Shown piece after piece: positions 5,131-45,634 of a DNA stretch of 64,000 nucleotides. The first letter of the stretch is position 1. Each line of letters starts with the position of its first letter. The stretch is from Promethearchaeota archaeon (lineage in GTDB: Archaea > Asgardarchaeota > Lokiarchaeia > Sigyniarchaeales > SOKP01), in contig JAHPZE010000005.1 in the NCBI GenBank assembly GCA_019058365.1, forward strand, positions 160,001 through 224,000, given 5' to 3'. A model generated the notes under the pieces. It did no database searches and was not told the origin of the DNA. It was given only the letters and a program-made list of their open reading frames with translations. The translations under genes and the position numbers were made by a program.

Positions 5131-5313
5131 GTAGAAAAACTTTAAGAAGTTAGCTTTTATGAATGTTAGAATTATTGAATATATTAATTTTTTTTGATTT
5201 CATGTAAAAAAAAATAAGTAAATTCTAGAAGATTGTATTAATTTAATCTATAAGTATAAATTTTATTAAAATTAAATACATTAACATCTTAAACATTATC
5301 ATTCAAATTAAAA

Positions 5314-6114: not shown

Positions 6115-6151
6115 CCAATTTTTATAAAATTAGTTTTTAAAGTTTTTTTAT

Positions 6152-7741: not shown

Positions 7742-7777
7742 AATAATGAGATTTAAAATATAAAATTTAAAAAAAAA

Positions 7778-14170: not shown

Positions 14171-14288
14171 ATCTGTGCCCTAATGTTGAAAATGTAATTT
14201 ATTTTTTATAATTCTTAATATTATTAAAAAGATGATATAATTATAAAATTGTTATTACTTTAACTAATGAGTTTTATACTAATTTTAA

Positions 14289-15587: not shown

Positions 15588-15661
15588 TCATGAAATTGTA
15601 CTTTGATAAGAATAATAAGAAAAAAAAATAGGTAGAAAACAAGTCTCAATGTTATGGCGAT

Positions 15662-19600: not shown

Positions 19601-19677
19601 GGGCCCGTGGTCTAGCTCGGTATGACGTCCGCTTGACGTGCGGAAGGTCGTGCGTTCAAATCGCGCCGGGCCCACCA
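19601..19677 (+). tRNA. tRNA-Val(GAC), 3' CCA encoded
   Basis: Acceptor GGGCCCG/CGGGCCC-A-CCA; anticodon arm TCCGC-TTGACGT-GCGGA; T-loop TTCAAAT. Confidence 0.96.
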
Positions 19678-28137: not shown

Positions 28138-29355
28138 ATGTCGTCAGTTGATTCGAAACTTTATCAATATGCTGTTCAAACGGCAAAGGAGGCAGTTGCT
28201 TTAGATAGCCAAGGAAAATTTCGTCAAGCAATAAATAAATACAATAGAGCTTCAGAAATTCTAATGCAGTTCATGAAATACAACAAAAATCCTCAGATGA
28301 GGATTTTATGTCAAAAAAATATCGAAGAATATGTTGAACGAGCAAAAATATTAAAATCTCAACTTGGAGGAGTTAGACCTAGAGGTGCAAGACCTAGTAC
28401 AAGTTCTGGTGCGGCGGGGGATGTTGATAGTGGTAAAACTGAGGTGGGTGTATCATCCGAAGAACAAGAACTCATTGATATGATATCGGGAACAATCGTT
28501 ACAGAATCTCCTAATGTAAAATGGAATGATATTGCTGGATTAGAAAATGTTAAACAAGCAGTAAGAGAAGCCATAGTATTACCAATGGCAAAACCAGAAT
28601 TATTTACTGGTGCGAGAAAGCCTTGGTCTGGTATATTACTATTTGGTCCTCCTGGATGCGGTAAAACATTATTAGCTAAAGCAGCTGCAACTGAATGTAA
28701 CGCTACTTTTTTTAGTGCATCTTCTGCTGATTTACTAAGTAAATGGTTAGGTGAAAGTGAAAAATTAATCAGTTCTTTATTTAAAGTTGCGAGGTTAAAA
28801 GCTCCTAGTTTAATATTTATGGATGAAATTGACTCAGTAGCAACAAAACGGGGAGAGGGTTCTGAGAGTGGTGGCGAGCGAAGAGTCAAAACACAGCTAT
28901 TAAGTGAAATACAAGGATTAAAATCGTCTCATGAAAAACTATTATTGGTATTAGGGGCAACAAATCGCCCTTGGGATATCGACAATGCTATGTTAAGTAG
29001 ATTTGAAAAAAGGGTGCATGTACCTCTTCCAGATTTAAAAGGTAGAGCGGGGATTTTTAAAATCCACACTGAAGGTGTAAATACAGCATTAACAGATGAA
29101 GATTTTGTAGAATTAGCAGTAAGGAGTGAAGGTTATTCTGGAAGAGATATTGCAAATGTATGTCGCGAAGTTATAATGTTGCCTGTACGTGAGTTAGATA
29201 TGAGCGGACTTTTAGAAGATTCAAATAAAGAAGTTACTGTTAGAGACATCACATTAAAAGATTTCAAAAAAACACTTAAAAAAGTAAAACCGATGACCAA
29301 TGCTGCATTATTAAGACAATATAATGCTTGGGCAGAAGAATTCGGAGAATTTTAA
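28138..29355 (+). CDS. vps4: Vps4 AAA+ ATPase (MIT plus AAA)
   Basis: MIT (AKEAVALDSQG...EYVERAKILK), GPPGCGKT, SKWLGESEK, DEID, ATNRPW, FGE C-terminus. Confidence 0.95.
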   Translation: MSSVDSKLYQYAVQTAKEAVALDSQGKFRQAINKYNRASEILMQFMKYNKNPQMRILCQKNIEEYVERAKILKSQLGGVRPRGARPSTSSGAAGDVDSGKTEVGVSSEEQELIDMISGTIVTESPNVKWNDIAGLENVKQAVREAIVLPMAKPELFTGARKPWSGILLFGPPGCGKTLLAKAAATECNATFFSASSADLLSKWLGESEKLISSLFKVARLKAPSLIFMDEIDSVATKRGEGSESGGERRVKTQLLSEIQGLKSSHEKLLLVLGATNRPWDIDNAMLSRFEKRVHVPLPDLKGRAGIFKIHTEGVNTALTDEDFVELAVRSEGYSGRDIANVCREVIMLPVRELDMSGLLEDSNKEVTVRDITLKDFKKTLKKVKPMTNAALLRQYNAWAEEFGEF

Positions 29356-29364
29356 ACAACTAAA

Positions 29365-30267
29365 ATGATAAAGATGGAAAGACACAGAGAAGAATCAAGT
29401 GAAATACCAAAGGAAATTAAAGTAAAAGCTGAAAAAGAGCTAAAAGAATTAAGGAATGAGCTTGCTAGGTTAAGACAGTTAAAAAAAGAAAAAGAACAAT
29501 TGGAAACAGAAGCAACTCAAAAACAAATCATTAAGCAAGAAGAGATTAAGACTACAGAATTAGACTATATAGAAGACCAATTTGACAAACTTGAAGAAAT
29601 TTTATCATCTAAGCGAGGTGAGATTGATAATAAAGTCTATCAACAACATGCTGATCAAATCGAAGCAGATTTGCAATCTCTTGAAGAAGAAATTATCGGA
29701 GAAAAGGGTTTAATAGAAAAAAAATTAACTGCTTATGATAATTTATTAGATGCTTATCCTTGGCTTGAGGAGGAAAGGAAAAAGTTTATGTATACGATGC
29801 CAGACAAAAATAAAGCCAAAATGGATTATATATCTTGGAAAACAGAATGGGCAAAAGTTCTCTTTGATTATGTGAGGTTTGCTGTACTTCACATTATTTA
29901 TACTAGAGAATTAATTACTCATAAACCATTTTCGAGTTTCACTCAGCGAGAGCATTACATTATAGAAATCGCTGAACAATTAATTAGTCAAAACCAAGCC
30001 AAATGGCTCTCAAAAAAGAAAGATAAATTAAGAGTCTATTGGAAAACACTTGATGTATGGTCAGATGAAATATATAATTGGGCATATGAAAATGGAAAAA
30101 TCGAGCCAATTATGATATATGAATTAAGAGAAGCAAAACAAGAAGACTTTAGTTCACTTCCATTAGAAGATTTGGAAGAGATTTTTAAGATTCTAGCAAA
30201 AAACCGTAAAGCAAAAGTTATGAAATTAGAGAATGGACAAATGGCTTTTAAAATAAAATTAGAATAA
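29365..30267 (+). CDS. vps25: ESCRT-II Vps25-like protein with N-terminal coiled coil
   Basis: SWKTEWAKVLFDY, VYWKTLDVWSDEIYNWA winged-helix pattern; adjacent to vps4. Confidence 0.82.
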   Translation: MIKMERHREESSEIPKEIKVKAEKELKELRNELARLRQLKKEKEQLETEATQKQIIKQEEIKTTELDYIEDQFDKLEEILSSKRGEIDNKVYQQHADQIEADLQSLEEEIIGEKGLIEKKLTAYDNLLDAYPWLEEERKKFMYTMPDKNKAKMDYISWKTEWAKVLFDYVRFAVLHIIYTRELITHKPFSSFTQREHYIIEIAEQLISQNQAKWLSKKKDKLRVYWKTLDVWSDEIYNWAYENGKIEPIMIYELREAKQEDFSSLPLEDLEEIFKILAKNRKAKVMKLENGQMAFKIKLE

Positions 30268-30272
30268 AATTC

Positions 30273-30986
30273 TCATATTGAGGGAAAGTACCATTGTTTC
30301 CCAGTTAAGATATTTTCCCTGAATTTAGCAATACCACTTTTTTCTAGGGATTCTAAAGCACGGAGAGTACGATCTTGTGACCATTCCAAGCTAGCACATA
30401 CATCTTCTAAAGTAAGAACACCTTTCTTTCTGGCTAAATCAACAACCTTTGCTTCATCACTCGTATATTCAATAGGAAAAAATTTTACAATGATTGCTCC
30501 TGAATCTAATTGGTTTATATCCTCAATTACCTTCGTTTTTTTCAACAATCTTAAAGATTTCTCGACATCTTTTACTTCAATATTTCCATTTAAAATTCCC
30601 GTATTTACTAATTCAAAGACTTCTGATAAGGGGATAATTCCTCCAGTTTCCTCTTTACTCATTAATACTCTTTGGTATGCTAACATTCCTAACTTTTGAT
30701 GATCAATTTTCGAGAATTTTCTCAATACATCATGCTCGGTTATTTGCTCAGTAATAATTTTTGAAGAGGGAATATTATATTTATTCTGTAATTGTTTTAC
30801 TTCTTTTCTTAATTCTGGTGTTAATGCTAATAAAACACCATGCTTCTTCGCTAATTCTCGCAGTTTATCTTTTGTAAATTTTTCAACAGACGCTTTTGCT
30901 TGCATATCTTTCATTTTCAGCTCAGTAGCTTTTTTTTTCATCGCTTCTTTTAGATCAATCTCATCTTCTATCTTTCGAATACCCAT
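30273..30986 (-). CDS. ESCRT-II Vps22/36 (EAP30)-like protein
   Basis: MGIRKI, ETGGIIPLSEV, tandem winged helices ending LEWSQDRTLRALESL...QWYFPS. Confidence 0.85.
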   Translation of the reverse strand: MGIRKIEDEIDLKEAMKKKATELKMKDMQAKASVEKFTKDKLRELAKKHGVLLALTPELRKEVKQLQNKYNIPSSKIITEQITEHDVLRKFSKIDHQKLGMLAYQRVLMSKEETGGIIPLSEVFELVNTGILNGNIEVKDVEKSLRLLKKTKVIEDINQLDSGAIIVKFFPIEYTSDEAKVVDLARKKGVLTLEDVCASLEWSQDRTLRALESLEKSGIAKFRENILTGKQWYFPSI

Positions 30987-31022
30987 TTTTAGATAACACT
31001 ATTTTTTAATACCTTTATTGAT

Positions 31023-31049
31023 TAATTATAGAATCTTTCATATAATTAT
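31023..31049 (+). repeat. Left terminal quasi-palindromic site of the integrated element
   Basis: TAATTATAGAATCTTTCATATAATTAT; 24/27 identical to the reverse complement of 44978-45004. Confidence 0.55.
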
Positions 31050-31467
31050 TTCTAACTATATAATTGAACTCCTTTCTTAACCAGATCTTTTCTATAATAT
31101 AATAATTTATTCTAATAATTAATTTGATTTACTTACTCTTATAATATAATAATATTTCTTTAATTTAATTGTTATGAATTACTTTCATTAACAAGAATTT
31201 AGAAAAAAATCTTAAAATTTCTTTTTCCACTAAAAATTTGGATAAACATAAAAAACTCATTAAATATATAAACTCTTAAATTAGATATAAGAATTTCTTA
31301 TTTCAAAATGAATATTAATTCTTTTGTATTTCAGCTAGATTCTAAATTTAAAACAAATTTAAAAGTATTAAATATTACTTAAATATTAGATAATTTTAAA
31401 TTGTTAAGAAATTAAAAAGAATAGATGAAAATCTTTTTTATATTAAAATATTAGAGAAGATTATATT

Positions 31468-32175
31468 ATGACATTAGTAGTTTGTTTAAAAGGGAAGGAT
31501 GGTCTAGTTCTTGCTGCTGATAGTCGTGGTACAATAGGAGATCCTAGAGGCTTAACAGCAATTAATGATTCAATGATTAAACTTTTTAAACTTAGTAATT
31601 ATGTAGGAGTTTTATCCTACGGTCAGGCAGAATTAGCTGCTCAATTAATACAAGAAATTAGAAATATATTAACGCCAGAAGATCATTACATCTCTCAAAT
31701 TGTAGCCAAAACAAGAAATATATTAAGAGCTAAATTTAATGAATGGTTTAAAAATATACCAATTGATAAAAGAGATAAAATTGTTGCTATAGGCTTTATT
31801 ATAGCTGGTCTTGAAGATGATAATACTGTAAAAACTTATTATTTAAATAGCGTTCTTGATTTTGCTCCTCAATTAGTAGTAACTGGTATAGCACTGGGAG
31901 GCGTACCACAATATGCGACATATTTAACTCATCGACTTTTTAATCCTGATATGTCAATTGAAGAATTGGTGAGTTTAGCACATTATGTTATAACTGAAAC
32001 AGCAACTCAAGATCCTAAAGTAGGTGGACCTGTTAAAGTAGTCAAAATAACAATAGAAAATGGTTATGAATCATTAAGTCAATCTGATTTAGATGAAATT
32101 AAAAAAAATAATGAAAAAATTAATAAAACATTGCAACATTGTTTTTATGTGGGTGATGATAGTGAAGAAGAATAA
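31468..32175 (+). CDS. Proteasome-beta-like Ntn protease without propeptide
   Basis: (M)TLVV..GKDGLVLAADSR gives Thr1, Asp17, Arg19; IKLF (Lys33 equivalent); FIIAG; QDPKVGGP. Confidence 0.85.
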   Translation: MTLVVCLKGKDGLVLAADSRGTIGDPRGLTAINDSMIKLFKLSNYVGVLSYGQAELAAQLIQEIRNILTPEDHYISQIVAKTRNILRAKFNEWFKNIPIDKRDKIVAIGFIIAGLEDDNTVKTYYLNSVLDFAPQLVVTGIALGGVPQYATYLTHRLFNPDMSIEELVSLAHYVITETATQDPKVGGPVKVVKITIENGYESLSQSDLDEIKKNNEKINKTLQHCFYVGDDSEEE

Positions 32176-32326
32176 ATACGAAGAAAAGCCTGTAGTTTAT
32201 AGCTATGATACATCTACTATAACACCTAATTTTTCAACTTATAATATTTGCTATTCATACCAAGAAATCTTAGAGGAACCTACAAATAAAAACATTTTAC
32301 CATTCATCAAAAAGGAAAGAAAATAG
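32153..32326 (+). CDS. Small ORF overlapping the protease stop
   Basis: MIVKKNKYEE... preceded by GGGTG; start estimated. Confidence 0.35.
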   Translation: MMIVKKNKYEEKPVVYSYDTSTITPNFSTYNICYSYQEILEEPTNKNILPFIKKERK

Positions 32327-32504
32327 ATTTAATCTCCTTATTTTTAATTAATTTTTCCATAAAATTATTAATTTCACAAATTATTTCCTATATTTTTTCC
32401 CTATATTTAACCCTTTTTTATATAACAATTAATTTGGTGATTTTTCACACTTAAAAGGGTTGATTAAATCTCTTTAATAAATAATATTTGGGATAAATCT
32501 TGAT

Positions 32505-32774
32505 TTAAAAAATATCTATTCCTCCTCCCCAATGTTTTTGATAATATCTCTTAATCACAATATATTTTTTCTTATATTCCTTATCTTTATCTTTCCATTT
32601 AAAATCTTTAGATAAATCCATTAGTACTTGATAATTATGATAAAAATCTTCTTCTGCTGTATTTGTTACAATCGCCAATATCATATTATTTATCAGTCTC
32701 TTAACTTTCTTTCTTTTACTTATACCTTTGGATAAATCTTTTACAATATCATATCCATCTTTAATTTTACCCAT
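32505..32774 (-). CDS. Small basic hypothetical protein
   Basis: Open 89-codon frame with GTGAG upstream. Confidence 0.55.
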   Translation of the reverse strand: MGKIKDGYDIVKDLSKGISKRKKVKRLINNMILAIVTNTAEEDFYHNYQVLMDLSKDFKWKDKDKEYKKKYIVIKRYYQKHWGGGIDIF

Positions 32775-32815
32775 ATAATACTCACTTACTACTTTTTATT
32801 CTTATTATCTTTATA

Positions 32816-33597
32816 TTAGTGTTTTATAACTATGCATCTTATTATCGTATCTCCGTCTTGGTTAAAATCTTTTACAAAGCATCTATATCTCTAATATTTC
32901 CTCCTTTATCATACACTAAGAATAGGATATTCTTCCACTTCTTAGAGTATGGTTGTATATCAGCAGACATCTCTTCAATTATTTGCTTTATTTTATCTTT
33001 TTTATCTAGAAATTTAACCTCTATTGCTATAATTAATTTCTTTTGCGTAAAATCAGGAAAGAAAGTTTTTTCTGAAAATTCAATATTTTCTTTTTCTCTT
33101 AAAAAATCATATTCTTTAACATCCAAGAAAGTTTCTAAATAGTCTTGAACATCCCTTTCATTTTCAGGATCGCTTTTTACTATTTTTCTAAAATTCTTCT
33201 CAATATCTTTAATAATCTCAAAGAAATCAATTTTAACTATAGTTTTCTTTAAATCTTCGGGATTTTCTATTAATTCCTCAACTTCCTGTAAATATATTAA
33301 TAATATCTGTTTTACAGTAGGGATTAACTCTATAGCCTCATCTTTTAATCCATGAGTAACTAACATGAATGGAAAGTTAGCTATAATTTGATAATTATGA
33401 AATACTTCTATTCCACATGGTCTTCTATAATAAATAGTTCCGTGTCCTAATTTTTGCATCTCTTTTTGCAAAATTCCAGCATTTGCTTGAATATATTCGA
33501 ATTCCTCTTTTGTAGCTTCCCTATTTTCAATCTTTCTTACAATATTAAGATATATTTCGGCTCTTTCTAGACTTTTTTTTAAGTTTTTTAAGTTCAT
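32816..33597 (-). pseudogene. PD-(D/E)xK nuclease (DpnII/MboI-like REase domain), frameshifted near its C-terminus
   Basis: NERDVQD, RE, PDF...AIEVK, EMSADI..Y, LFLVYD; adding 1 nt near 32875 gives FVKDFNQDGDTIIRCIVIKH* ending at 32816. Confidence 0.78.
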
Positions 33598-34110
33598 TGA
33601 GATAATGGTTTTTTAATTTTTTCTTACTATATTATTTTATTTTTTGTCTGTTAATTCAATCCCTAACTCGATTATTGTACTTCTTAATTTTAAAATAATC
33701 AAATAAATATTTAAATTGATTTATTAAATTATTAAATTACTAATATTATCCTTCTATGAATAAAGAAATTTCTAATTATTTCCTTTAAAACACAAATTAG
33801 CATTTATTTTTTATTAATATTTTTCCTTTCTATTTTTCAATTTTATAACCAAATATTAACATCAGATTTCACACACAAGAGGTTAAGAATTCAATAAATT
33901 AGAACTCTATTTTATTTAAAATAGAAGATAATTACTTTATTAATTAAACCATAATAGGCGATTCAAATTAGAAATAATAGAAAAAAGAGATGTTATAGAC
34001 ACTTATCCTATTCATCCATTATCATTCTTTAATAAATGTTATATAGCTGGAATAGAAGTAAAGGTGCGGGATAAGACAACATTAGTAAAAGTCTGGGAAT
34101 GTAAATAATA

Positions 34111-34386
34111 ATGTTAGCTGAAGTTTTAAGTATTATTACTGTTAGTGTTGTTGTAGCTCATTTGATAAAAGATTTTATAACTGATAGGCGTCAGAAGAAA
34201 TTAGACCAACAAAAACTTCAATTAGAACAGAGTAAGGCAAATGTGGATATGATAACAAAATTACCAGATATATTGGAATCCTTATTTGGTAATTCTCTTA
34301 TTAAAAATCCCAAAGAATTAAAAACAAAGATTAAAGAAATTACAGAAGCATATAAAGATTTTAAAGTAGAAGATATAAAGAAATAA
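34111..34386 (+). CDS. Small protein with N-terminal TM helix and coiled coil
   Basis: MLAEVLSIITVSVVVAHLI followed by a heptad-rich segment. Confidence 0.6.
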   Translation: MLAEVLSIITVSVVVAHLIKDFITDRRQKKLDQQKLQLEQSKANVDMITKLPDILESLFGNSLIKNPKELKTKIKEITEAYKDFKVEDIKK

Positions 34387-34446
34387 TTACTAATATTGAA
34401 GATTCTCACATATGTAGAATGTATAGGTAGTTCATTTTATCATTAT

Positions 34447-34650
34447 TTATTTTTCACCATTATTGTTAAGTTTAGATTTTATGAACAATTCTAACCTTTC
34501 TCGATATGTATCAAACGTATTTAATATATCATCTATTCCAAGACATATCTCTGAATTCTCAAAGATTGGGACAGCAGATAAAGCATCTTCATCTTCTATG
34601 TATTCTCTTATTTCCAATTTTATGTCAAATTTCTTTCTGTTTGATGGCAT
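34447..34650 (-). CDS. Small hypothetical protein
   Basis: Directly follows the RHH gene, with GGAGG-like site upstream. Confidence 0.55.
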   Translation of the reverse strand: MPSNRKKFDIKLEIREYIEDEDALSAVPIFENSEICLGIDDILNTFDTYRERLELFIKSKLNNNGEK

Positions 34651-34653
34651 TGA

Positions 34654-34836
34654 TTAATCCTCTTTCTCTTCCATAATTGGAAATAAGATTCTTCGAACAT
34701 AATGGGAAACTGTTGTATCTTCTTTTTTAGCTTTCTCTTCTAACTCTTTCTTTTGTTTTTTGGTTGAAACACATGAAATTACTTTTTCCAGTCTTTCTTC
34801 ATCTAATTTTTTTTTATTTACCATTTTTAATATCAT
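34654..34836 (-). CDS. Ribbon-helix-helix DNA-binding protein
   Basis: KVISCVSTKKQKKELEEKAKKEDTTVSHYVRRIL. Confidence 0.7.
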   Translation of the reverse strand: MILKMVNKKKLDEERLEKVISCVSTKKQKKELEEKAKKEDTTVSHYVRRILFPIMEEKED

Positions 34837-35241
34837 AAATTTGTTATTAAAAATTATTAAATGTTAATTAAATAATAATTTATTTTTCTATTATTTAAAT
34901 GGAGTGATTTATTTAAAGATTACTGGATTTGTTCTTTATGTCAGGAAGAGTTTATGATTTCTATAGATTATATAAATTATTATTCTGAATCCATTTAAAG
35001 AATTTCAGATTATAGTATTAAGGGAATATTAAGTCATATATAGATAATTTTAGGTCAATATTTAGTTAATATTAAGTAATCTATAAAATTATAATTCCAC
35101 CCAAAGAAAATCTATATATTCTTTAGCTGAAATTTAGAAATAAAGTTTCTATTAACTTTTAATATATTAAATTATATCATATTCACTATAAAAATAATAA
35201 ACATTAAATTCTTTTTTCATACAATTAAATATTTATAAAAA

Positions 35242-36009
35242 TTAAGGTTCGATCATTAATAGTGTATTATAATCAATTTCATTTAGTTTTTTTGCTAATT
35301 TATATAATTCTTGCCTAATTGAAGTTAAATCTAATTCATCTGTGCAAATCTCCTGAAATTTTTTAAAGATTTTAAATAAAAGTCCATACAATAAATCCAG
35401 ATTATTATTATGATAAAAAGCTCTCAGTAAATCCCATTTACTAAATATAAAAAATCGTTCAGCAATGTATAAATTATTTCTTAAATATTTTGATATATTT
35501 TCTAAAAATTCTGGACTTTTAAAAATTTCTCTTTTTACACTCAAACCTATAGCCCATTGTTCAATATATTTTTGTGGTACTTCATCAAAATTTTTATTCA
35601 CAAACCAGTCAGCATAAAACTCTTTGAATATTCCTAAAAGAGTATAACAAAGCTTTTGAATAGAATCATTAGGAAAATTGGTTTTATCAAAAATATTATC
35701 TATTCTTAGGAGTTGCGAATGTCCAAACTCGTGTCTAGCAAAATAATGAAAAATATCTTTTAGATCTTCGTGTGAATAATTAGAATCATCAAAAATTTCT
35801 TTCTTTAATATATTTTCGTTATATTTAATCTCGAAATAATTATTTTCAGACATACATAAAAAAAATTCTTCATATAATGGATACGTAATTAATTTTCCTT
35901 TTTCATCATTTTTTAATATTTTATAGGTTTTTTTAGGAGAAAATTTCTTATTTAAATGCTCTATTTCTAATTTAAAATTGTTTATCATTTCATCTAAAGA
36001 GGATTCCAT
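35242..36009 (-). CDS. HEXXH zincin-like metallopeptidase domain protein
   Basis: ARHEFGHS plus downstream KEFYAD (ExxA, third ligand). Confidence 0.65.
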   Translation of the reverse strand: MESSLDEMINNFKLEIEHLNKKFSPKKTYKILKNDEKGKLITYPLYEEFFLCMSENNYFEIKYNENILKKEIFDDSNYSHEDLKDIFHYFARHEFGHSQLLRIDNIFDKTNFPNDSIQKLCYTLLGIFKEFYADWFVNKNFDEVPQKYIEQWAIGLSVKREIFKSPEFLENISKYLRNNLYIAERFFIFSKWDLLRAFYHNNNLDLLYGLLFKIFKKFQEICTDELDLTSIRQELYKLAKKLNEIDYNTLLMIEP

Positions 36010-37167
36010 TTTAATCTTTTAATCTTTTTTAAATTTTAAAATTAACTATTTAGATTCATTATATTTAACATTGTTCTGAATCTTTCTGTCTTAAAGTCTT
36101 TTTTATCTATTATCTCCCTCCTCTCTGCTGTTCCTTCTAAATAATTAGCTGTATTTAATATTTAAAAAATATCCCGTTTTAGGTTATTTTAGGTATGGAA
36201 AAATTTTAATTAATAAGAAATTACATAAAATTAAAAAAAATATAATTTTGGTATATTCTCTTAATTTTGATACCCTATTTACAACCTATTAAATCTATAT
36301 ACCATGATATATTAGTCTTATACCTCTATTAACTTAAATTTAGATTAAAGCAATTTAATTTACTTTTTTTTCTTTTTTTTCCTTCTAAATATTCTATTTT
36401 AAGATTTGATTCCAATATTATGTTGGAGTCTTCTTTTTCTCCTTATAGATTCATGGAAAACATGAAATTTATAAAGGAAATAAAAAATGATCAAATTACC
36501 CTTAAATAAAATAAAAATAATAGAAAAAGAGTGATGAAAAAATGCCTTATGATAGTGATGGTTTTCCTGCTTCAGGAAATACCTATTTTGAAATTTCTAA
36601 AGATGTCTATTTTAAGATTTTAAAGGTCTTAAAAAAGATTACGAAAAGGAAATAGAAGCAATATTGAAACCAACGAAGACTATAACCTATATAGAACCCT
36701 TAACAAAACAGGATATTCTTGGGATTGTATCCCTTTTTGGTTGGAAAAGAATTTCCCTAATGTTAATGGAGAAAAATTTGAAGATTTAAGAGCTTCTTTT
36801 AAGATATTTGTAGAAGGTTCTAAAAACAATACCAAACTTAAGAAATATTTAAATGAAGAAGGGATTCATGGCAACGCAGTTAACTTAAAAAGAAAGAAAA
36901 TTGAAACTACAACAATTACTCATAACTAAGAAAATAATGAATTTCCTCTTAATGAAATGTCTTAATCTTAAATTGAAATAAAAGAATAATCAATTCATTT
37001 ATTCTTTACTTTTTTTATTTAATAATTAGAATCATTAAGTTGAAAATTAAAACAATTTTTTTATTTGTCTGTGTAATTTGTTAATGATTTCTCTAGTCAA
37101 ATTATTTGGGTATTAAAATAATAGACTAACAATATATTTATTATTCTAACGTGTCTATAATTTTAAT

Positions 37168-37821
37168 ATGTCAAGATTCGATATTTCTGAATTAAAAATT
37201 TCTGCTTATTGTCCTCATTGTAATCAATATACATTAATTACAAGAGTAGAGAATAATGTTCAATGGGAAATAAGACAAAATTGTGGTATTATAGCGTTGT
37301 GTGTCTATAAAATAAGAAATATTGAACATTATTGGTGGATAGGAGAATGCCATAATTGTAATGGAGTAGTTTTAGTTCTAAATCAAGGTATTGAGATTTA
37401 TCCAAGACCAAAACCAGAAGAAAGTGATAAAAGGATTCCAAGAAACGTTAAAGAAGACTTTGATGAAGCGAAAATGTGTTTTAGTGTTAATTGCTATCGC
37501 GCTAGTGCTGCGATATCTCGAAGAGCATTAGAGACTTGCTGTATTGATAAAGGAGCCGATAAAAACAAAAACTTACAAGGAATGATAGAAGATTTATTCA
37601 ATTTAGGCATAATTACGAAAGAAGTAAAGGAATGGGCAGATACAGTTCGATGGATTGGAAATGACGCAGTTCATGTAAATGCTAATAATGTAGTAAGAGA
37701 AGATGCTGAAGACATATTGGATTTAGCTAAACAGATATTTCATATTGTTTATATTGCTCCTGCTATAGCTAAATCAAGACAACAAAAAAGAAAACAAAGT
37801 AAATCAGGAAAAACACCCTAA
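37168..37821 (+). CDS. Zn-ribbon plus DUF4145 (HEPN-superfamily) protein
   Basis: CPHC...CHNC; DFDEA..C, ASAAISRRALE, VRWIGNDAVH (Rx4-6H). Confidence 0.85.
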   Translation: MSRFDISELKISAYCPHCNQYTLITRVENNVQWEIRQNCGIIALCVYKIRNIEHYWWIGECHNCNGVVLVLNQGIEIYPRPKPEESDKRIPRNVKEDFDEAKMCFSVNCYRASAAISRRALETCCIDKGADKNKNLQGMIEDLFNLGIITKEVKEWADTVRWIGNDAVHVNANNVVREDAEDILDLAKQIFHIVYIAPAIAKSRQQKRKQSKSGKTP

Positions 37822-38584
37822 CAGCCATAGAATGGCTTAGCAACCTTATTAATTAATCATTAACTTATATCAATACAATAATGAATTTTTGAGTAAATAT
37901 TAAATTAAAAAAAAATAATATAGAAATAGTGGAGGAATACAATTTAGGCGGTGCTTAATCACGAAGCCATCTGTCTAAATTTATTCTTCCCAATTCTATA
38001 TTTGTTTTTAGTTCTTTTCTAGTTTCCCGACTAATTAATATTACAATCTTTTGTCGGGAAGAGTCCGTGTATGATATTTTTATGTCTATCATAACAAGAT
38101 TTGGATATTTCACATTATTTAAAATAAAAATTATTAACCTGTTAAATAACTTAAATACTTGGATAAACATTTATCATTTTTTCATCAAATAATTAAAATA
38201 TTTTTAGGTAAAATTCTATCCATTTTTGTATGTATCCCACACACCTCCTATTCGTAGCATATATTTGAAGGTAGTCTCATATTATTTTTTTCATGTAAGT
38301 CCGCAATGGTTTGGTTAAAAGGGTACTACACATATGTCCATTAATGTGGGATTTCACACATTTTCAAATATTCATGAATTATTCATTATAATTGAAGGAA
38401 TCTCATATACTTTAACCAGCTTCCAAGAAAATATTGTGAGATCTGTATAAATTATGTATAGAGAGTTATTATGTTCTTATAGTTAGTTGTTAAAAGAAAG
38501 CCATTAAGTAATCTTACCCCAATACCTATTTTCAACACCCTCTTTATGAATTAAGTGTAAAAATAATAATCTCTGAATACTTTC

Positions 38585-39544
38585 TTAGTTAAGAGTTATT
38601 ATTCTATTAGGTTTACACACTATCTTATCTCCATCATTGAATGGATCAATTTCTTTAATTAAAATCTTCTGATTCCAAGTTGGATTAAGAAACACAAAGA
38701 AATATTTACATTTATTTTTAATGGCTTCTTCATATTCAAATCTCAAAGAATTTGAACCATTTTCTTTTGATTGATAAAATGTTAATGATGCTTCACGTGA
38801 AAATCGTAATTTTAAGGAATAATTCTTGTTATTCCATATTATATCTGAAACATGTTCATTATGAGCAACTATCTCATGTAGAAATTCTTTTGGAATTCCT
38901 AATTTTAAAGCATACCAATCTTCAAATAAATCGCATAACCTATACTTTTCATGTCTATGATTTCTCATTAATTTAGCATGTTTATCTATAAAAGATTATG
39001 TAATATCAACATTTTCATCATCTATCTGCTGGTATGTTTTATCGAAACATAATCCCTCTGCTATTCTTGCTATTCTATCATCTTTAATTGACTTTCTCAC
39101 ATAAGCAGGAAAAGTTAATTCTTTCCTGTCGTACTCCTTTTTATTTTCCTCTATTAGAAATAGTAAAAATCCTAATTGATAAGTTATAAGATTTCCTTGT
39201 TCTAAGGCTTCTTCTTAATGAATAATAATTTCATTAATCTCTTTAAATTTGGATTTATGAATACTTTTTATCTCCTTTTTAACGTATTCAATTATTTCTT
39301 TTTGTAATTCAACTATGTCTTTATTAAATATATCGTCTGCTATTACCTCTGAATGACCTCTTATGTTCCAATAATCATTTCTTAATCTTGCCTCATTAAA
39401 ACAATGTTTTTCTTTTTTGTCGATTGCTTTATCATCTTCTTTGGCAATTTTTATTTGTTCTTCTATCTCATCACTAGGACGTCCTAAAATCCTGTAATAT
39501 TCTTCATACCATTTATCTGGTTTAATATTTGATGAATTCAACAT
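38585..39544 (-). pseudogene. Single ~320-codon gene (possible HTH plus nuclease-like C-terminus) broken by two in-frame TAA codons
   Basis: Track ORFs 39215-39544 and 38585-38968 share a frame; the 82 codons between them are open except TAA at 38996-38998. Confidence 0.75.
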
Positions 39545-39613
39545 TATTATTTATTTATTTTTTAATTTCTTTATAATATGATCAATATATTTTTTACAAA
39601 ATTTGCTATTCTT

Positions 39614-40077
39614 TTAATTCAAATACTCATTAAATCTTTCCAAACTCTCTATTAAATCCTTTTTACTTTCTAACTTTACATATTTCTTTTCTATCATTTG
39701 CCCTCTTGCGTCTACAACAATTTTTGTAAATATGAAAGTAACTATTTTTATGATTAAATAGCTTAAAACTAATGTATAGGTTGTATCTTTACCAAAAATT
39801 TTTTCTTGGAGAATAACTACCAATCCAATTGAAAATGTTATTGAAATAATTAATGTAGAAAATAAAAATCTAATTCCAAATTTGTTTATTCCAATAGAGT
39901 TTAGTTCCCAAATAGTCTTTGGTGCTGAATTCTTATATATATACCTCTTAATATAAGATATGCGAAAAATCGGCTAATTATGCTGATTATAACAGAAACT
40001 AAGAATATTGCTATTATAACAATAAAGAAATTCAAAATATGATGGGTTTTTACTATTACTTTTTTTCTTTTTTGCAA
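39614..40077 (-). pseudogene. Three-TM membrane protein frameshifted at an (AT)n tract near 39934-39943
   Basis: Manual translation from TTG at 40077: ..LNFFIVIIAIFLVSVIISIISRFFAYLILRGIY, then a 2-nt shift, then KNSAPKTIWELN...LVVILQEK (joins track ORF). Confidence 0.65.
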
Positions 40078-40253
40078 TTTTTCAACTCTTCCTGAATTAT
40101 TTTTTCAAATTTATCTGTATTTTTCATAAAATAATTTAACAATTTTCTCAATATTTCTGAACGGGATGATTTAAGTTCATATTTCTTATCATTAATGAAT
40201 TTAATCTGCTCATCATATAAATGAAAAGATGTACGCTCTGTTATTTTAATCAT
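40056..40253 (-). CDS. CopG/RHH DNA-binding protein
   Basis: RTSFHLYDEQIKFI...SSRSEILRKLL; GAGG upstream. Confidence 0.8.
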   Translation of the reverse strand: MIKITERTSFHLYDEQIKFINDKKYELKSSRSEILRKLLNYFMKNTDKFEKIIQEELKNCKKEKK

Positions 40254-40593
40254 ATCCTCTATTTATTTATTTTTTTATTTTCCTATTATTTTATTAATTT
40301 TATAATCGAAAAAGGTTATATTTAAATGGAATTATTTAATCAAAGCTATATATAGATTAGGAAGATTAAATTCATGAAATATATATCTTTCATAAATAAT
40401 CTCTATTCTAAGATTTCTATAGTTATTTTAGCTTTCTTATTTTTCACTAATTCATATTCTCTCGTAATTTTGATAGGAAAACACAAATAAATCATATTTT
40501 ATATATGGTTTAAAATTCAATCTATCAGAATAAGGATAATTTTATAACAATGTAAATGAAATATTAATTATAAAAGAAAAAAATCTGTCTTAA

Positions 40594-43401
40594 ATGTATA
40601 AATCATTCTGTCCATTTCCAACTGATAATTCTAAAGTCCTTATCGGAGATTCTGATGGTAAATTGTATATTGGTAAATTAAAAGATTTTTCAACAAAAAA
40701 CTTAACAGATCAAGAATTTTGGGAATGTTTAGTGGAACTAGAATCACCTGAGTTGATTCAACTTGATTATGTTAGTTCATCAATTCGAAATTTAATCAAA
40801 ATAAGCAATCATGAAATTGTTGGACATTCTTATATGGGAGATGTATTTCTATTTGATTGTCTTAACTATGAATTTTACCAGATAAGGAAGGGTTATGCTA
40901 GTTCAAGAAGCAATATGTATCAGATAGCGTCTGTTGATTCTAACCAATTTGTTACTTGTGGAAATTATGGAAGGTTTTGGTTTTTTAACAGAAGAAGTGA
41001 TGGATCTTGGGAAAGTACTTCTGTTAACTTTTCATCTCAACACGCTCATTTTGCTCTTGAAGTATACAATAAGGAATTAAAATCCTATATCATAAACAAT
41101 TATGTAGGTTCTACAAACCTTATGGATAATTCAGGTTCTGTTATTAAAAATCTAGGAACATTCGATAGCAATCTACAAAATTTAATAATTCAAGAAGATG
41201 TAATTGTTGCTGTTGATTATTTTGGTAATGCTCATTTATATTCAAAAAGTACATCAGGTGAGTTTATTTATAGAAAAATCCAGACTATTGATTGTGATTC
41301 AAAAACAGGAATTTATCCCCATATTGTTTTCATAAATGGCTTTTTTTTTGCAGCGTTTCCAAATTTTTTATGGAAATTTGACCCAGCATTAACTAGTATT
41401 CAAAAAATGGATATTTTTTGCCAAGACATTTGTGTTATTAATAATGAAGCTGTAATACTTACAAAAAATAGTATTATTTTAGTAAATTCAGATAAATTCT
41501 TTACACCAATAGATTTTATAAATTATGAATATATTACTATCGGTATTATTGGATATACAGATAGTGGGAAGTCAACATTTTGTTATCGTCTAATTTATAA
41601 TGAATATAAAGATGACCTTAGTACTACTTCAGGTACATTGACTTGGAATTTAGATTTAGATGATGATAAAAAAATATTCATTAAAGATATTCCAGGACAG
41701 CATGATGAGATTGGATTTTATTTTCCCAAATTAAAAAGATGTGATTTAGTAGTAGGAATGTGCAAAATTAAGGATTCTATTAAACCGTGGAGAGAAACTA
41801 TTGAAATGTGTGATACCATAAGAAAGAATTATGGTGTTAAGAACTTTATCTTTCTTAGATCTAAGAGTGATGATAAAGTAAAAGCACGAGAAGAAGCAAT
41901 TAAAGAAGAATTACAAAAATATAGATTCAATCCAAAATTATTGTTTGATGTTAGCGCGAAAGATAATACCGGTATAACTCAAGTTAAAGAAATCTTAAAG
42001 ACTCCATCTTTCTGGGAAAATAGCAAGATTTCGACTGAAAATAAAATAAAGACAAAATTAATGTTAAAAATTGGTGAAGTGAGAGCTTCAAAACAAAAAA
42101 TGATTAAACTTGAACATCTTAAAGTTCCAAATTATGAAGGTATCAATCCTAAATTATTAGAGAAAATAATTATTAAATTAGCTGAAGAAGATCAAATTTA
42201 TTATATTACAACTCAAAAGCAAATACTACTTGATACAGAGGAAATGGGAGAAGTTGAATCATATATTTTAAATTTATTTTCTGAAGGTGAGGGTTTATAT
42301 CATGGAAAGAAACTTCAAGCATTATTAAAGGATTATTTTAATCTTATGGAAAAAAAAGAGTTAGATTACTATTATGATCAATTTATTAAATATTTACTTG
42401 ATGAAAATAAATTGACCGAAATACTTCCAGATATATATGTATTAAATGATAAGTTAAAAACAACTCTTGAGATTCCAGATGAACATTTATGCACTGAAAT
42501 TAAAATAGAAAAACCCATATTAGTATCAGAAATTATCGATAATTTTGTATCTAAAAATATGACTTTGAAAGATTTAAGTCAGAATAAAATATTATTCACA
42601 GATTCTTCAGAGAACGGTATGATTTTCATTGATTTACCAGAAATAAGTGAGTTTAATAAAAATTTTGCATGCAAACACTTAAAAGTCTTTTTTAAATACT
42701 CTAATGAAGTAGAAAACGCATTCATATTTTTCTATGAAAACATAAGAAGTCATATTTTAACAGCATTACCTAGAATTTTGAATTTTGAAAATAAATCTGG
42801 AACTCCGATTGAAAATTGCTTAGAACTATTTCATTACGTTAATGAAGCACCAAATATTGATTTTAAGACTATTATAAATTATAAGAAAGGTAAAAAAGGA
42901 GTTCACACAGCAATTCAGAAGGAGATTATAAAGGATATAATTGCATTAGGTAATTCCTCATTTTACTTTAATAACATTTCATATTATATAATTGGGGTCA
43001 AAGAAAAAGACGGAAAGTTTAAAAATTTACAAAATATTGAGAATCAAGACACCATTTTTCAGCAAATCGCATTTTTATGTAGGAAATATATTCAGGTAGG
43101 TTTTAATTTAAACCATATTCAAATTAAGGTTTATGAACTCTATAAAATGATTGATAATGGGAAAATAGACTTAGAAATTCCCTTTAGTGAATCGCAAAAA
43201 AAAAATACGTGTAAAGATAAATTATTTATAATTCAAATTACTCGAGAAACAAATGCGTGTCTAGAACTTAGAGAAGAGCTGAATTGGAGAAATTCTAAAG
43301 GTTTTATAAACCATATATCAAAAGGTACTAGTTGGATCAGAATTGGAAGTCATACATTTGGACTATTGAATGAAGAAAGAAAGACCTTATTATTAAATTA
43401 G
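40594..43401 (+). CDS. Beta-propeller / Roc-like small GTPase / winged-helix (COR-like) / Schlafen AlbA_2 fusion protein
   Basis: WD40-like blades aa ~1-300; G1 GYTDSGKS, G2 T, G3 DIPGQ, G4 SKSD, G5 SAK at aa ~313-470; EAPNIDFK..KDIIALGNS..YIIGVKE from aa ~750. Confidence 0.8.
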   Translation: MYKSFCPFPTDNSKVLIGDSDGKLYIGKLKDFSTKNLTDQEFWECLVELESPELIQLDYVSSSIRNLIKISNHEIVGHSYMGDVFLFDCLNYEFYQIRKGYASSRSNMYQIASVDSNQFVTCGNYGRFWFFNRRSDGSWESTSVNFSSQHAHFALEVYNKELKSYIINNYVGSTNLMDNSGSVIKNLGTFDSNLQNLIIQEDVIVAVDYFGNAHLYSKSTSGEFIYRKIQTIDCDSKTGIYPHIVFINGFFFAAFPNFLWKFDPALTSIQKMDIFCQDICVINNEAVILTKNSIILVNSDKFFTPIDFINYEYITIGIIGYTDSGKSTFCYRLIYNEYKDDLSTTSGTLTWNLDLDDDKKIFIKDIPGQHDEIGFYFPKLKRCDLVVGMCKIKDSIKPWRETIEMCDTIRKNYGVKNFIFLRSKSDDKVKAREEAIKEELQKYRFNPKLLFDVSAKDNTGITQVKEILKTPSFWENSKISTENKIKTKLMLKIGEVRASKQKMIKLEHLKVPNYEGINPKLLEKIIIKLAEEDQIYYITTQKQILLDTEEMGEVESYILNLFSEGEGLYHGKKLQALLKDYFNLMEKKELDYYYDQFIKYLLDENKLTEILPDIYVLNDKLKTTLEIPDEHLCTEIKIEKPILVSEIIDNFVSKNMTLKDLSQNKILFTDSSENGMIFIDLPEISEFNKNFACKHLKVFFKYSNEVENAFIFFYENIRSHILTALPRILNFENKSGTPIENCLELFHYVNEAPNIDFKTIINYKKGKKGVHTAIQKEIIKDIIALGNSSFYFNNISYYIIGVKEKDGKFKNLQNIENQDTIFQQIAFLCRKYIQVGFNLNHIQIKVYELYKMIDNGKIDLEIPFSESQKKNTCKDKLFIIQITRETNACLELREELNWRNSKGFINHISKGTSWIRIGSHTFGLLNEERKTLLLN

Positions 43402-43680
43402 CTTAGCAATCATTTTTTTCTTTATTTTAAATCCTATAAATAAATAACCTACTTATTATATTTCTATTATTCTCCTCCCCTGTAATGACTCCTCCTAAAG
43501 ACATTAATGAATAGGAATTTCAAATTTTTGAAAATTAATATCTTTGTTTCTTCTTAATATCCTTTTAGGTGGAATCTTTTTTAAAATTGGGTGAAATCTT
43601 GTATGAAAATGTAAAATTTCTTTTCAAAATTTTTATATTTTTTTTTAACCTCTTAATTATTCTATAGGATAATAATCAGA

Positions 43681-44970
43681 TTACAGAATATCAGGATTTT
43701 TTTTTGGAATATCTTTAATCATCATCTGCTTTACAATTGTGAACAATTGTGGAGATATCTCAACTAATTGTTCTACTTTTTGCTTTAAATTTTTTATTTC
43801 TTTTTTCAATTCTTTATTTTCTTCTTTAATTTCATCAATTTTATATGGTTGGGCTAATAACTCAATACCAATCTCTTTTTTGTTTCCTTCTTTAATATTA
43901 TTACCACATTTCCAGCAAAAGAGATTTTCTTGAGCGTTCTCAGTTTTACATATTGAACAGAGTTTAGGTTTCTTTTCTTTTCTTTTTTTGCTTTCTTTCT
44001 TTTCAATATAATCTGGAGCTAACACTTCCTCTAAATCAGAATCATCTAAATGGAAATAGGTCTCAGGCATATTAGAGCCTCCTGTCCATCCCGCGAATTT
44101 TCTAATCTGTGGCTCGTTTAATTTAGTTAATGCTAATTCTGTTAATCTAGAATGCCTAAATAGGTGTGGATAAAGTTTCTTACCGTTCCATTTTTTAGGA
44201 TGATTCTTAGCTATCTTATTTCCTACATATAGCAAATGTGAATTTAATGTATTATCGTTTTTATAATTGAAAAGTTTATCATTTGGTTTAAATTCACTTC
44301 TACTAAGATACTCTCGTATATATGGCAAACTCTCGTATAAAGGAATGTCTCTTTTCTTCGTCATTGATTCTGATATTTTTAAAATTCCATAATCTCCTTT
44401 AATTTCTATATCCTTCTTTTTTATATTAAGAACTTCACCTTTTCGTAAAGCCCCTTCATACATTATCATAAGCAATGTCCTTAATTTAATGCCACAATTT
44501 TTTAAAATAAGATCTAATTCATCTCGAGATATTAAATCAACTTTGCTTATTTGCTTCCTTTTAATCTTAATTCTATTTGGAATAAAATCAATTAAATCTT
44601 CTCTGTTAGAAAATTGTAAGTAAGTCTTAATTCTACTAAGAAAATTCTTTTGGGTTGATTTTGATAAATTTTTCCACCATCTACAATTAAAAAGCTCTTT
44701 AGTTTCTTTCTCTGTTAACAATCTTATATTAGAATGCTTCAATCGAAATTTATCATCATGTGGTGTTTTGTTGTTTCTTTGTTCATTTGATTCAAATAAT
44801 TTACTGATTGAAGCTAAATGATTATAAATAGTACTTTCTGAAAGTCCATATAGTTGTTTCAAGTAATAGTTTTCAATATTACTTTCTTTAGATGCTAGTA
44901 AGTTTCTATAGAATTCAATTTCTTTATATAAAATTAAATTATTCATAATCATATTATTTAAATAAAACAT
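43681..44970 (-). CDS. Tyrosine recombinase/integrase with C-terminal Zn ribbon and coiled coil
   Basis: YEGALRKGEV (R), HLFRHS (HxxR), AGW, ETYFH (Y); CSIC...CWKC; true start may be a few codons downstream. Confidence 0.93.
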   Translation of the reverse strand: MFYLNNMIMNNLILYKEIEFYRNLLASKESNIENYYLKQLYGLSESTIYNHLASISKLFESNEQRNNKTPHDDKFRLKHSNIRLLTEKETKELFNCRWWKNLSKSTQKNFLSRIKTYLQFSNREDLIDFIPNRIKIKRKQISKVDLISRDELDLILKNCGIKLRTLLMIMYEGALRKGEVLNIKKKDIEIKGDYGILKISESMTKKRDIPLYESLPYIREYLSRSEFKPNDKLFNYKNDNTLNSHLLYVGNKIAKNHPKKWNGKKLYPHLFRHSRLTELALTKLNEPQIRKFAGWTGGSNMPETYFHLDDSDLEEVLAPDYIEKKESKKRKEKKPKLCSICKTENAQENLFCWKCGNNIKEGNKKEIGIELLAQPYKIDEIKEENKELKKEIKNLKQKVEQLVEISPQLFTIVKQMMIKDIPKKNPDIL

Positions 44971-44977
44971 AATATTT

Positions 44978-45004
44978 ATAATTATATGAAAATTTCAATA
45001 ATTA
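44978..45004 (-). repeat. Right terminal quasi-palindromic site of the integrated element
   Basis: ATAATTATATGAAAATTTCAATAATTA; inverted relative to 31023-31049. Confidence 0.55.
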
Positions 45005-45046
45005 TTAATTAATAATAATAAATCTTCTTAATTCTTTCTATTTTAA

Positions 45047-45634
45047 TTGAATATGATTGAATCTACAAATTTCAGGCAAATTAATGAAATCGAGAAAGAA
45101 ATCATATCTAAATCGTTATCTAAAATTTCTCCTAAAATTATGCAAATTTTAATAAGATCTAAGAAAAAGTTATATATTTCACTAATCGAGTCAAATTTGA
45201 AAACAAATTACCCTACTATTTACTTGATATCCAATGAATCTTTAAACCGATTAGATTTAATTGAATTTAAAACTAAGATTTATTCAGCGGGGTTATACTT
45301 TGGGTTCATAAAAAAGGGAGATTTTTATTTTAGCTTAGAAGGTGCAGAATTTCTATACAAACAAGGAATTTTTTCTGAATTTAAACGTCTACATCTAAAT
45401 ATTAAGGGAGAAAAATCAGTTTTATATGGAAACAATATTTTAAAGAATATGGTTATTAAGACGCCCTCTAATCTACAAAAAGGGGATTTCTTATTAATTT
45501 TTAACAATATGAACGAAATTCTAGCTATAGCACAATCTAAAGTTGATAGCATAGTTATACAACATCTTAAACCTAATGATATTATTGCTTTTACTTTAAA
45601 CGATAAGGGTATCTATTTGAGAGAAAAGCAATGA
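45047..45634 (+). CDS. nip7: NIP7-like ribosome biogenesis protein (PUA domain)
   Basis: IYSAGLYFGFI..F.FSLEGAEFL, EKSVLYGNNI, DKGIYLRE. Confidence 0.8.
   Translation: MNMIESTNFRQINEIEKEIISKSLSKISPKIMQILIRSKKKLYISLIESNLKTNYPTIYLISNESLNRLDLIEFKTKIYSAGLYFGFIKKGDFYFSLEGAEFLYKQGIFSEFKRLHLNIKGEKSVLYGNNILKNMVIKTPSNLQKGDFLLIFNNMNEILAIAQSKVDSIVIQHLKPNDIIAFTLNDKGIYLREKQ

Follow-up and report, generated by a model that had tools for sequence, protein, structure and literature searches.

The window analyzed here is a stretch of 64,000 nt from contig JAHPZE010000005.1 of a Lokiarchaeia genome (G000, 4.74 Mb, 29.5% GC, in which the contig is C46), and coordinates are positions in it unless stated otherwise. 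Between the ESCRT-II gene vps22/36 and its divergent neighbor nip7, the window carries an insert of 13,987 bp, from 31027 to 45013 with the right-hand copy of a flanking repeat counted in. The insert is very probably a plasmid-like "cryptic integrated element" that was inserted by its integrase, is partly decayed, and carries immune-type cargo. Searches with Pfam, PHROGs, and NCBIfam, all at the sequence level, found no virion, conjugation, or transposase families in the insert or in a sibling element from another species; with an integrase present, the insert thus has the hallmarks of a cryptic integrated element. The kind of element is known; the family to which it belongs is small and newly defined, and is the first one.

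The original prediction for this DNA, made from the sequence alone, held that core genes stop at 30986 and resume at 45047, with an integrase-bearing insert between them. Gene calls and empty sites agree. With Vps22/36 and NIP7 as queries against 40 relatives, the two genes were found to be divergent neighbors, 73–121 bp apart, in about 16 same-genus genomes, the synteny that had been predicted; the relatives do not carry the inserted genes as a stable core. In the nearest relative, G005 (97% Vps22/36 identity), the empty 73-bp intergenic region reads ...TTTATTGATTAAT|AATAATAAATC... and splits exactly at both window junctions, the left half running to 31026 and the right half starting at 45014. 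Comparison with the empty sites of G005 and eight other genomes places the junctions, base-precisely, at 31026|31027 and 45013|45014. The insert proposed at 31036–44991 is thus real, with its ends shifted by 9 and 22 bp, the proposed ends being the outer edges of an inverted repeat. The proposed target also holds: the element occupies the divergent vps22/36-nip7 intergenic region rather than a tRNA gene, as judged by the empty sites and by the absence of a tRNA gene at either end of the insert (the sole tRNA in the window is at 19601–19677).

At the junctions there is a 12-bp direct repeat (11/12 identical), the last six bases of which, ATTAAT, are the same in both copies. The left copy has the host-type G at position 6 and the right copy the element-type A, which makes ATTAAT, next to the junction, most likely the strand-exchange region. 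A 14-bp perfect inverted repeat sits 9–10 bp inside the junctions; neither 2000 shuffles nor 3000 random 60-mer pairs from the island produced a repeat of this length. In such AT-rich DNA, a generic search for repeats over the region yielded no terminal direct repeat that was convincing, and the junctions are clear only through the empty sites. The composition of the insert is deviant, its GC of 24.7% (against 29.5% for the genome) falling at the 0.5th percentile of 14-kb windows. Long noncoding gaps had been noted in the original prediction; coverage by open reading frames (ORFs) of at least 100 aa is 55% in the insert against a genome mean of 77%.

The integrase is encoded at the right end. 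In a 13-member alignment of its clade, residues R176, H269, R272, W295, and Y305 are invariant, as are four cysteines; the check for tyrosine-recombinase residues assigned R, H, R, W, and Y but no catalytic lysine. The protein aligns to the XerA structure 4a8e across the catalytic domain. Its C-terminus consists of an invariant CxxC...CxxC zinc ribbon (residues 338–355) followed by a coiled coil (about residues 370–410), a combination of which we know of no description in archaeal integrases. The clade comprises at least 167 clusters, every named member of which is from Promethearchaeota/Lokiarchaeia, and IMG/VR contigs contain only generic integrase relatives with at most 29% identity. The integrase ORF is whole and is separated from the right repeat copy by 31 bp; the enzyme behaves like the non-partitioning type, unlike SSV-type integrases. 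The insert had been called domesticated, and this is not shown: the integrase keeps all of the invariant catalytic residues, and both attachment (att) sites are present.

The attP regions reconstructed for the window element and for its sibling are homologous. In each, the palindrome ATAATTAT occurs three times, the start-to-start distances being 20 and 31 bp in both elements; the pair at 44978 and 44998 in the window shows the 20-bp distance, as does its counterpart in the sibling. The genome frequency of this 8-mer is 0.23 per kb. From their conserved placement, the palindromes are probably binding sites for the integrase and are proposed as candidates for that role.

The vps22/36-nip7 site is used repeatedly. 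Foreign DNA starts at the same exact position, and with the same terminus of roughly 24 bp, in four genomes, i.e., G000, G008, G023, and G024. A maximum-likelihood tree built from the neighboring vps25-vps22/36 DNA of 17 genomes scatters the four occupied genomes and requires at least four changes; G000 pairs with an empty sister at 100/100 support, and so does G008. Repeated insertion at the site would explain this, as would repeated precise excision of elements, and either is integrase behavior. A contig break in G014 was considered as a fifth occupied site and rejected, since the two contig ends overlap an empty site.

The occupants in the other genomes are as follows. A 1.5-kb remnant lies at the site in G008 (G008:C10, L032 2496–3966) and a 2.6-kb remnant in G024 (G024:C20, L033 2363–4991). 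Both have the left end of the family followed by one or two small genes for two-transmembrane proteins with an MCP-signaling domain, and neither has an integrase; the cargo is thus not always immune-related. Around the G008 remnant lies a direct repeat of ~45 bp, in which the vps22/36 promoter is copied. In the G024 remnant, 38 bp of the left end recur ahead of the second gene, which suggests tandem integration. In G023 (G023:C1, L036 about 2058–2400), the same junction and ~24-bp terminus follow vps22/36, and after them come unrelated DNA and then the Ns of a scaffold gap; in this genome, which is 81% complete, no nip7 was found.

The sibling element (G008:C43, L055 1994–17769) is collinear with the window element over most of its length, at 69–86% nucleotide identity. 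It was found through the 290-bp noncoding left end, which is single-copy in G000 and recurs on contig C43 of G008 about 14 kb from an integrase 54–55% identical to that of the window. A perfect direct repeat of 21 bp bounds the sibling, and an inverted repeat of 17 bp occurs at the position equivalent to the one in the window. It sits in a short divergent intergenic region upstream of pyrD. The pyrD site of G000 is empty, being a 78-bp intergenic region with one copy of the 21-bp core, so that each genome is the empty-site control for the element of the other.

Alignment of the two copies reveals a conserved backbone, which includes a protein with a restriction-endonuclease (REase) domain, a DUF4145 protein, the proteins B8 and B9, small DNA-binding proteins, and, in intact members, a helicase. 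Three slots between the conserved blocks hold unrelated genes in the two elements, the exchanged cargo being mostly of immune type. Slot 1, adjoining the left end, holds a gene for a proteasome-beta-like protein in the window and a TIR-AbiTii fusion (2331–3308) in the sibling. Slot 2 holds a 91-aa ORF and a HEXXH protein in the window and a 692-aa helicase in the sibling. Slot 3, adjoining the integrase, holds a 935-aa GTPase in the window and a fusion of an AAA_15/AAA_21 ATPase with Schlafen AlbA_2 (13891–15819) in the sibling. In a search for defense systems with the PADLOC 2.0 hidden Markov models (HMMs), this ATPase-Schlafen fusion matches the AriA, HEC-01A, and Gabija-type models. That the window element acts as a defense island, as originally proposed, is a reading that draws on domain content, on the neighboring genes, and on the clear defense genes in the equivalent slots of the sibling; the window cargo may be of this type.

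The backbone was also sought more widely. B8 is present in 2 of the 54 genomes of the genus. In four metagenome loci that have B8 relatives, only sub-modules are shared with the element: RHH-B9-B8 (RHH, ribbon-helix-helix), the 71-aa gene with B8, or the helicase with B8. The family is therefore mosaic. Four loci with related integrases (G008:C28, G014:C121, G016:C76, and G018:C19) have the integrase alone in common with the window element and are uninformative on the backbone. Two of these sit beside gene starts. The integrase at G014:C121 (L039 2167–3444) lies directly beside the start of pyrD and is broken by a TGA, and the one at G008:C28 (L038 8354–9622) adjoins panB. Both are 46–50% identical to the window integrase, and their cargo is unrelated, including large CBM96 and DUF2341-like proteins.

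The window copy is partly decayed, with three broken backbone genes and a lost helicase gene, in line with the original count of at least three broken genes. When compared with the intact sibling, B8 has two in-frame TAA codons, B9 has lost its N-terminal 153 residues, and a 76-aa gene is frameshifted; the sibling's 110-aa and 692-aa genes are absent. Recoding at the internal stops of B8 was considered and rejected, as both are TAA, the commonest terminator of the neighboring genes. The ratio of nonsynonymous to synonymous substitution rates (dN/dS, window versus sibling) of B8 is 0.30, from which its inactivation looks recent. A nuclease-like fold for B8 is a low-confidence lead. The intact genes shared by the two copies have dN/dS of 0.16–0.30, indicating constraint. 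The 692-aa protein of the sibling (5913–7991) resembles DUF927/Cch-type primase-helicases, with an atlas feature score of 0.96–0.98 and 211–219 shared features, and its structural neighbors are PriCT_2, Prim-Pol, and DnaG-type proteins. It is recognized by no HMM library. Its assignment as a DUF927/Cch-like primase-helicase is thus a good lead, not proof.

We propose the following scheme. The element's own right-end tyrosine integrase would have recombined attP with a short AT-rich host site, the center of the 73-bp divergent vps22/36-nip7 intergenic region, leaving behind the 12-bp direct repeat with its single mismatch. With the helicase lost and three backbone genes broken, the window copy is probably no longer self-replicating. 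Excision may still occur, as the integrase is intact, the two att sites are present, and the cargo genes are open. Most likely, the element persists as a host-borne accessory gene set, probably directed against viruses.

Several points weigh against this interpretation. In the window, the DUF4145 gene, whose product matches the single-gene system PD-T7-4 (E 1.6e-16), is the only one that matches a named PADLOC system, the REase-domain protein giving a partial match; a defense role of the proteasome-like, HEXXH, and GTPase proteins is not demonstrated. The activity and function of the element are themselves deduced from sequence. The metagenome relatives share sub-modules only, and their fetched flanks (up to about 10 kb per side) contain no such integrase, which makes "family" a loose term. 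The direct repeat of the window is short, imperfect, and set in a 75% A+T context, and would be unconvincing without the empty sites. The helicase assignment draws on language-model and predicted-structure similarity, with no HMM match. Many Asgard virus capsid proteins are unrecognizable by sequence.

The last point bears on the alternative that the insert is a decayed provirus, i.e., the remains of a temperate Asgard virus whose structural genes were lost or are too divergent to recognize. The original prediction allowed for either a provirus or a plasmid remnant. The integrase does best match phrog_1 integrases, several ORFs belong to no family, and the atlas neighbors of the sibling's helicase come mostly from viral records, yet no viral hallmark gene supports a provirus: neither a major capsid protein nor a packaging ATPase was detected by sequence in the window or the sibling, and capsid, portal, terminase, and tail families are absent from both, the intact sibling included, in Pfam and PHROGs. 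The original observation that no capsid, packaging, replication, or conjugation gene is recognizable in the window stands with Pfam, PHROGs, and NCBIfam. Moreover, B8 and the 692-aa helicase have no relatives on IMG/VR contigs, where the relatives of the integrase are as distant as described above, and spacer matches, which had been suggested as a check, were not forthcoming: in the CRISPR arrays of G000, located by a home-made scan, 0 of about 107 host spacers match the element, and none gives a near-full-length match to the island or its relatives. A length of 14–16 kb and a Cch-like helicase are typical of plasmid-like integrated elements (PMC6563490). A plasmid remnant thus fits better, and a provirus is considered improbable. 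As to other classes of mobile element, an integrative conjugative element finds no VirB4/VirD4-type ATPase or relaxase, the sole match being a sub-threshold NikA-like RHH protein. An integron was considered and rejected, as integron-integrase models gave 16.6 versus 265 bits and no attC-like repeats flank the slots.

The other explanations are less probable still. The region might be ancestral and deleted in relatives, or prone to recombination unrelated to the integrase, as four species have different DNA at one position and the G008 and G024 remnants lack an integrase. This very unlikely reading was already disfavored by empty sites that are scar-free and nearly identical across the genus, by a tree on which the sisters of occupied genomes are empty and at least four changes are needed, and by the deviant GC, own integrase, and flanking repeats of an element whose sibling occupies an unrelated locus with a reciprocal empty site. 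Significant inverted repeats of 14 and 17 bp near both ends, and short direct repeats at the junctions, could suggest a transposon with terminal inverted repeats and a target-site duplication. No transposase was found, though, and the inverted repeats are sub-terminal. The direct repeats vary in length among insertions (12, 21, and about 45 bp), and the empty pyrD site already contains the 21-bp core once, a sequence homologous to the attP of the window element; these two facts point to att identity, not duplication upon insertion, and leave a transposon hardly credible. An assembly chimera, that is, foreign or contaminant DNA in the contig, is about as remote a prospect. The estimated contamination of the bin is 6.6% and the GC of the island is deviant, but the insert lies inside a contig of 249,750 bp, where junctions that resolve an empty site to the base argue against misassembly, and three other genomes, each assembled independently, have the same element ends at this position.

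The CRISPR arrays of G000 lie at C24:49205–57171, C24:73703–73932, and C30:43655–44028; one of them is large (~100 spacers, 37-bp repeat). The 29-bp repeat of the small C30 array is G+C-rich, which looks odd for a genome of 29.5% GC, and this array may be on a contaminant contig.

Features of the integrated element and its flanks. Coordinates are window positions; "sibling" is the G008:C43 element.
Feature	Coordinates	Strand	Evidence or remark
Vps4	28138–29355		left flank
Vps25/ESCRT-II	29365–30267		left flank
Vps22/36 (EAP30), ESCRT-II, host flank	30273–30986	-	PF04157 E 1.7e-14; same-genus orthologs 78–97% identity
attL repeat copy	31015–31026	.	TTATTGATTAAT, host-type G at position 6
Integrated element	31027–45013	.	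junctions from empty sites; deviant GC
Conserved noncoding left end	31027–31316	+	79–86% identical to G008:C10, G008:C43, G024:C20
Left sub-terminal inverted repeat	31036–31049	.	TTTCATATAATTAT; holds palindrome ATAATTAT at 31042–31049
Variable slot 1 cargo, proteasome-beta-like, 235 aa	31468–32175	+	PF00227 E 8.6e-12
Backbone gene, 89 aa	32505–32774	-	84% aa identity to sibling; dN/dS 0.16
Backbone gene, 241 aa, C-terminal DpnII-MboI-type restriction-endonuclease domain	32872–33597	-	PF18742 E 1.9e-13
Conserved stretch without long ORF	33598–34110	.	75% identical to sibling 4989–5494
91-aa ORF at position of the sibling's 692-aa helicase gene	34111–34386	+	82% identical to frame in metagenome locus L060; absent from sibling
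Two small backbone genes, 67 aa and 60 aa	34447–34836	-	55% and 64% identical to sibling
Variable slot 2 cargo, 255-aa HEFGH (HEXXH) protein	35242–36009	-	translation; absent from sibling
Frameshifted 76-aa backbone gene remnant	36542–36705	+	tblastn of sibling ORF splits into two frames; shift near 36622–36637
Small backbone gene, 62 aa (81 aa in sibling)	36741–36929	+	87% identical; dN/dS 0.24
DUF4145 backbone protein, 217 aa	37168–37821	+	PF13643 E 5.2e-22
Small backbone gene, 71 aa	37955–38170	-	common to sibling and metagenome loci L060, L061
B8 pseudogene (335 aa when intact)	38579–39544	-	single-frame alignment to sibling protein; in-frame TAA at 39215–39217 and 38996–38998
B9 membrane protein remnant (239 aa when intact)	39704–39958	-	only residues 154–238 left (C-terminal 85), no start codon; tblastn and frame inspection
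Small ribbon-helix-helix candidate, 65 aa	40056–40253	-	PF01402 (RHH_1) E 0.0039, below cut-off; 42% match adjoining B9 in metagenome locus L059
Variable slot 3 cargo, 935 aa, central GTPase	40594–43401	+	PF01926 E 1.4e-6
Tyrosine integrase, 429 aa, intact	43681–44970	-	PF00589 E 1.5e-15; phrog_1 integrase E 2.4e-26
Right sub-terminal inverted repeat	44978–44991	.	ATAATTATATGAAA; 14-bp perfect partner of 31036–31049
attR repeat copy	45002–45013	.	TTATTAATTAAT, element-type A at position 6
NIP7, host flank	45047–45634	+	PF03657 E 5.5e-11; orthologs adjoin vps22/36 in relatives

The larger ORFs said to be intact in the original prediction, i.e., the proteasome-like, HEXXH, DUF4145, and 935-aa proteins, are all open. 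The proteasome-like protein scores far under the equivalog cut-off for archaeal PsmB (38 versus 224 bits). For the HEXXH protein, no Pfam, PADLOC, or NCBIfam family was matched. The REase-domain protein gives its partial PADLOC match to Aga_Helical-REase (E 2.6e-9), an Argonaute-associated nuclease domain; it is 74% identical to its sibling counterpart with a dN/dS of 0.24, and the DUF4145 protein is 80% identical with a dN/dS of 0.16. Two RHH genes had been called, and matches are indeed present at both, though sub-threshold: beside the RHH_1 candidate in the table, the 60-aa gene (34654–34836) is a NikA-like candidate (PF21983 E 2.4e-5, 24.8 bits against a cut-off of 27).

The 935-aa protein had been described as a Schlafen fusion. 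In some homologs the C-terminal domain is indeed Schlafen AlbA_2-like, as 3 of the 11 full-length homologs (47–57% identity) match PF04326, the best at E 6.4e-7, but the C-terminal part of the window protein itself has no PF04326 match even at E 1. Direct comparison of this C-terminus with the Schlafen fusion of the sibling was not significant, and PDB searches with the sequence and with the family profile gave no match. The protein is rare, with 13 homolog clusters in 5.8 billion and the gene in 1 of 151 genomes sampled from the order; no further loci of its family were found in genome contigs.

Two stretches without ORFs, at 33598–34110 and about 36341–36740, are as well conserved between window and sibling as the genes. 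The former is possibly an origin or regulatory region; it contains no start-codon-bearing ORF common to the two elements. Rfam found nothing credible across the island, these stretches included, the single match being far below threshold. Within the former stretch, an open frame of ~50 codons (window 33944–34108 and L055 5345–5494, both on the + strand) is conserved, and neither copy of it contains an ATG, GTG, or TTG start; the shared residues are ...PIHP...AG.E.K..DKTT.VKVW.CK. The frame may be what is left of a gene, may encode a small protein that uses an unusual start, or may be mere conserved DNA.

How does the element compare with known systems? Bacterial defense islands on integrative elements have a conserved frame with exchangeable slots for immune genes beside an integrase. 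By analogy, the element resembles them in having slots with different immune genes in each copy (TIR-AbiTii or proteasome-like; ATPase-Schlafen or GTPase). It differs in being archaeal, in its unrelated backbone genes, in having no known helper virus, and in cargo that is not always defense-related.

Among archaea, cryptic integrated elements are an established class, defined for Thaumarchaeota (PMC6563490). There, the integrase is the sole universal gene, the median size is 17 kb, and a primase/helicase and accessory nucleases are often present; intergenic targets account for 15 of 68, and repeated or tandem use of one site is known (PMC6563490). Like these elements (PMC6563490), the window element has an integrase, a size near 17 kb, short att repeats, an intergenic target, accessory cargo that includes nucleases, and, in its intact sibling, a candidate primase/helicase-type protein, and lacks virion and conjugation genes. 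Unlike them, it resides in a Promethearchaeota/Lokiarchaeia host, and its integrase, with zinc ribbon and coiled coil, belongs to a clade that is lineage-restricted among named members. The targets examined for the window family all lie beside the starts of housekeeping genes (nip7, pyrD, and panB), and the two mapped to the base are the centers of short divergent intergenic regions. Integrated mobile genetic elements (MGEs) of Atabeyarchaeia, e.g., Yucahu-i, have an 11-bp AT-rich att motif and an SF3-type helicase, and their co-existing circular forms have been shown (PMC11529989). The window element shares with them (PMC11529989) an Asgard host, a tyrosine integrase, a very short AT-rich att (here 12–21 bp), and a plasmid-like nature. 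Its att motif and gene content differ from those of the Atabeyarchaeia MGEs, it is known in integrated form alone, and no sequence kinship was seen, nor was one tested for.

As to the ESCRT-II context, the insertion point is 40 bp from the start codon of vps22/36 and 33–39 bp from that of nip7, the likely start of the latter being the ATG at 45053, as in relatives. From start codon to junction the sequence is unchanged on both sides, and on the nip7 side the repeat restores a further 12 bp (11 identical). AT-rich boxes, possible TATA elements read by eye, therefore remain in place. A change in ESCRT-II expression is possible, and nothing points to one. The 73-bp vps22/36-nip7 intergenic region (window 30987–31026 plus 45014–45052; loci L002–L020) is almost invariant across the genus, where NIP7 itself has 43–68% aa identity, which suggests a tightly constrained bidirectional promoter.

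A broader proposal, which we regard as rather doubtful, is that the Lokiarchaeia-specific integrase clade is specialized for the centers of short bidirectional housekeeping promoters (vps22/36-nip7, pyrD, and perhaps panB), its attP rebuilding the promoter-proximal sequence on both sides. If this were true, exchangeable immune and signaling cassettes would have used the ESCRT-II/nip7 promoter as a landing pad again and again, on at least four occasions, and its occupancy might alter ESCRT-II or nip7 expression or expose the cargo to read-through from host promoters.

For ESCRT biology, the element carries a caution: the genes beside vps22/36 in G000 are mobile cargo, not ESCRT components. It also provides a cross-validated case, resolved to the base, of a mobile element from the archaeal lineage nearest to eukaryotes; the case covers a family of elements with its att sites, a candidate motif for integrase binding, and a reused landing site beside an ESCRT operon. 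Lokiarchaeial integrated elements are poorly catalogued, and the integrase clade, with its many clusters, could mark more of them together with their immune cargo, such as the GTPase fusion.

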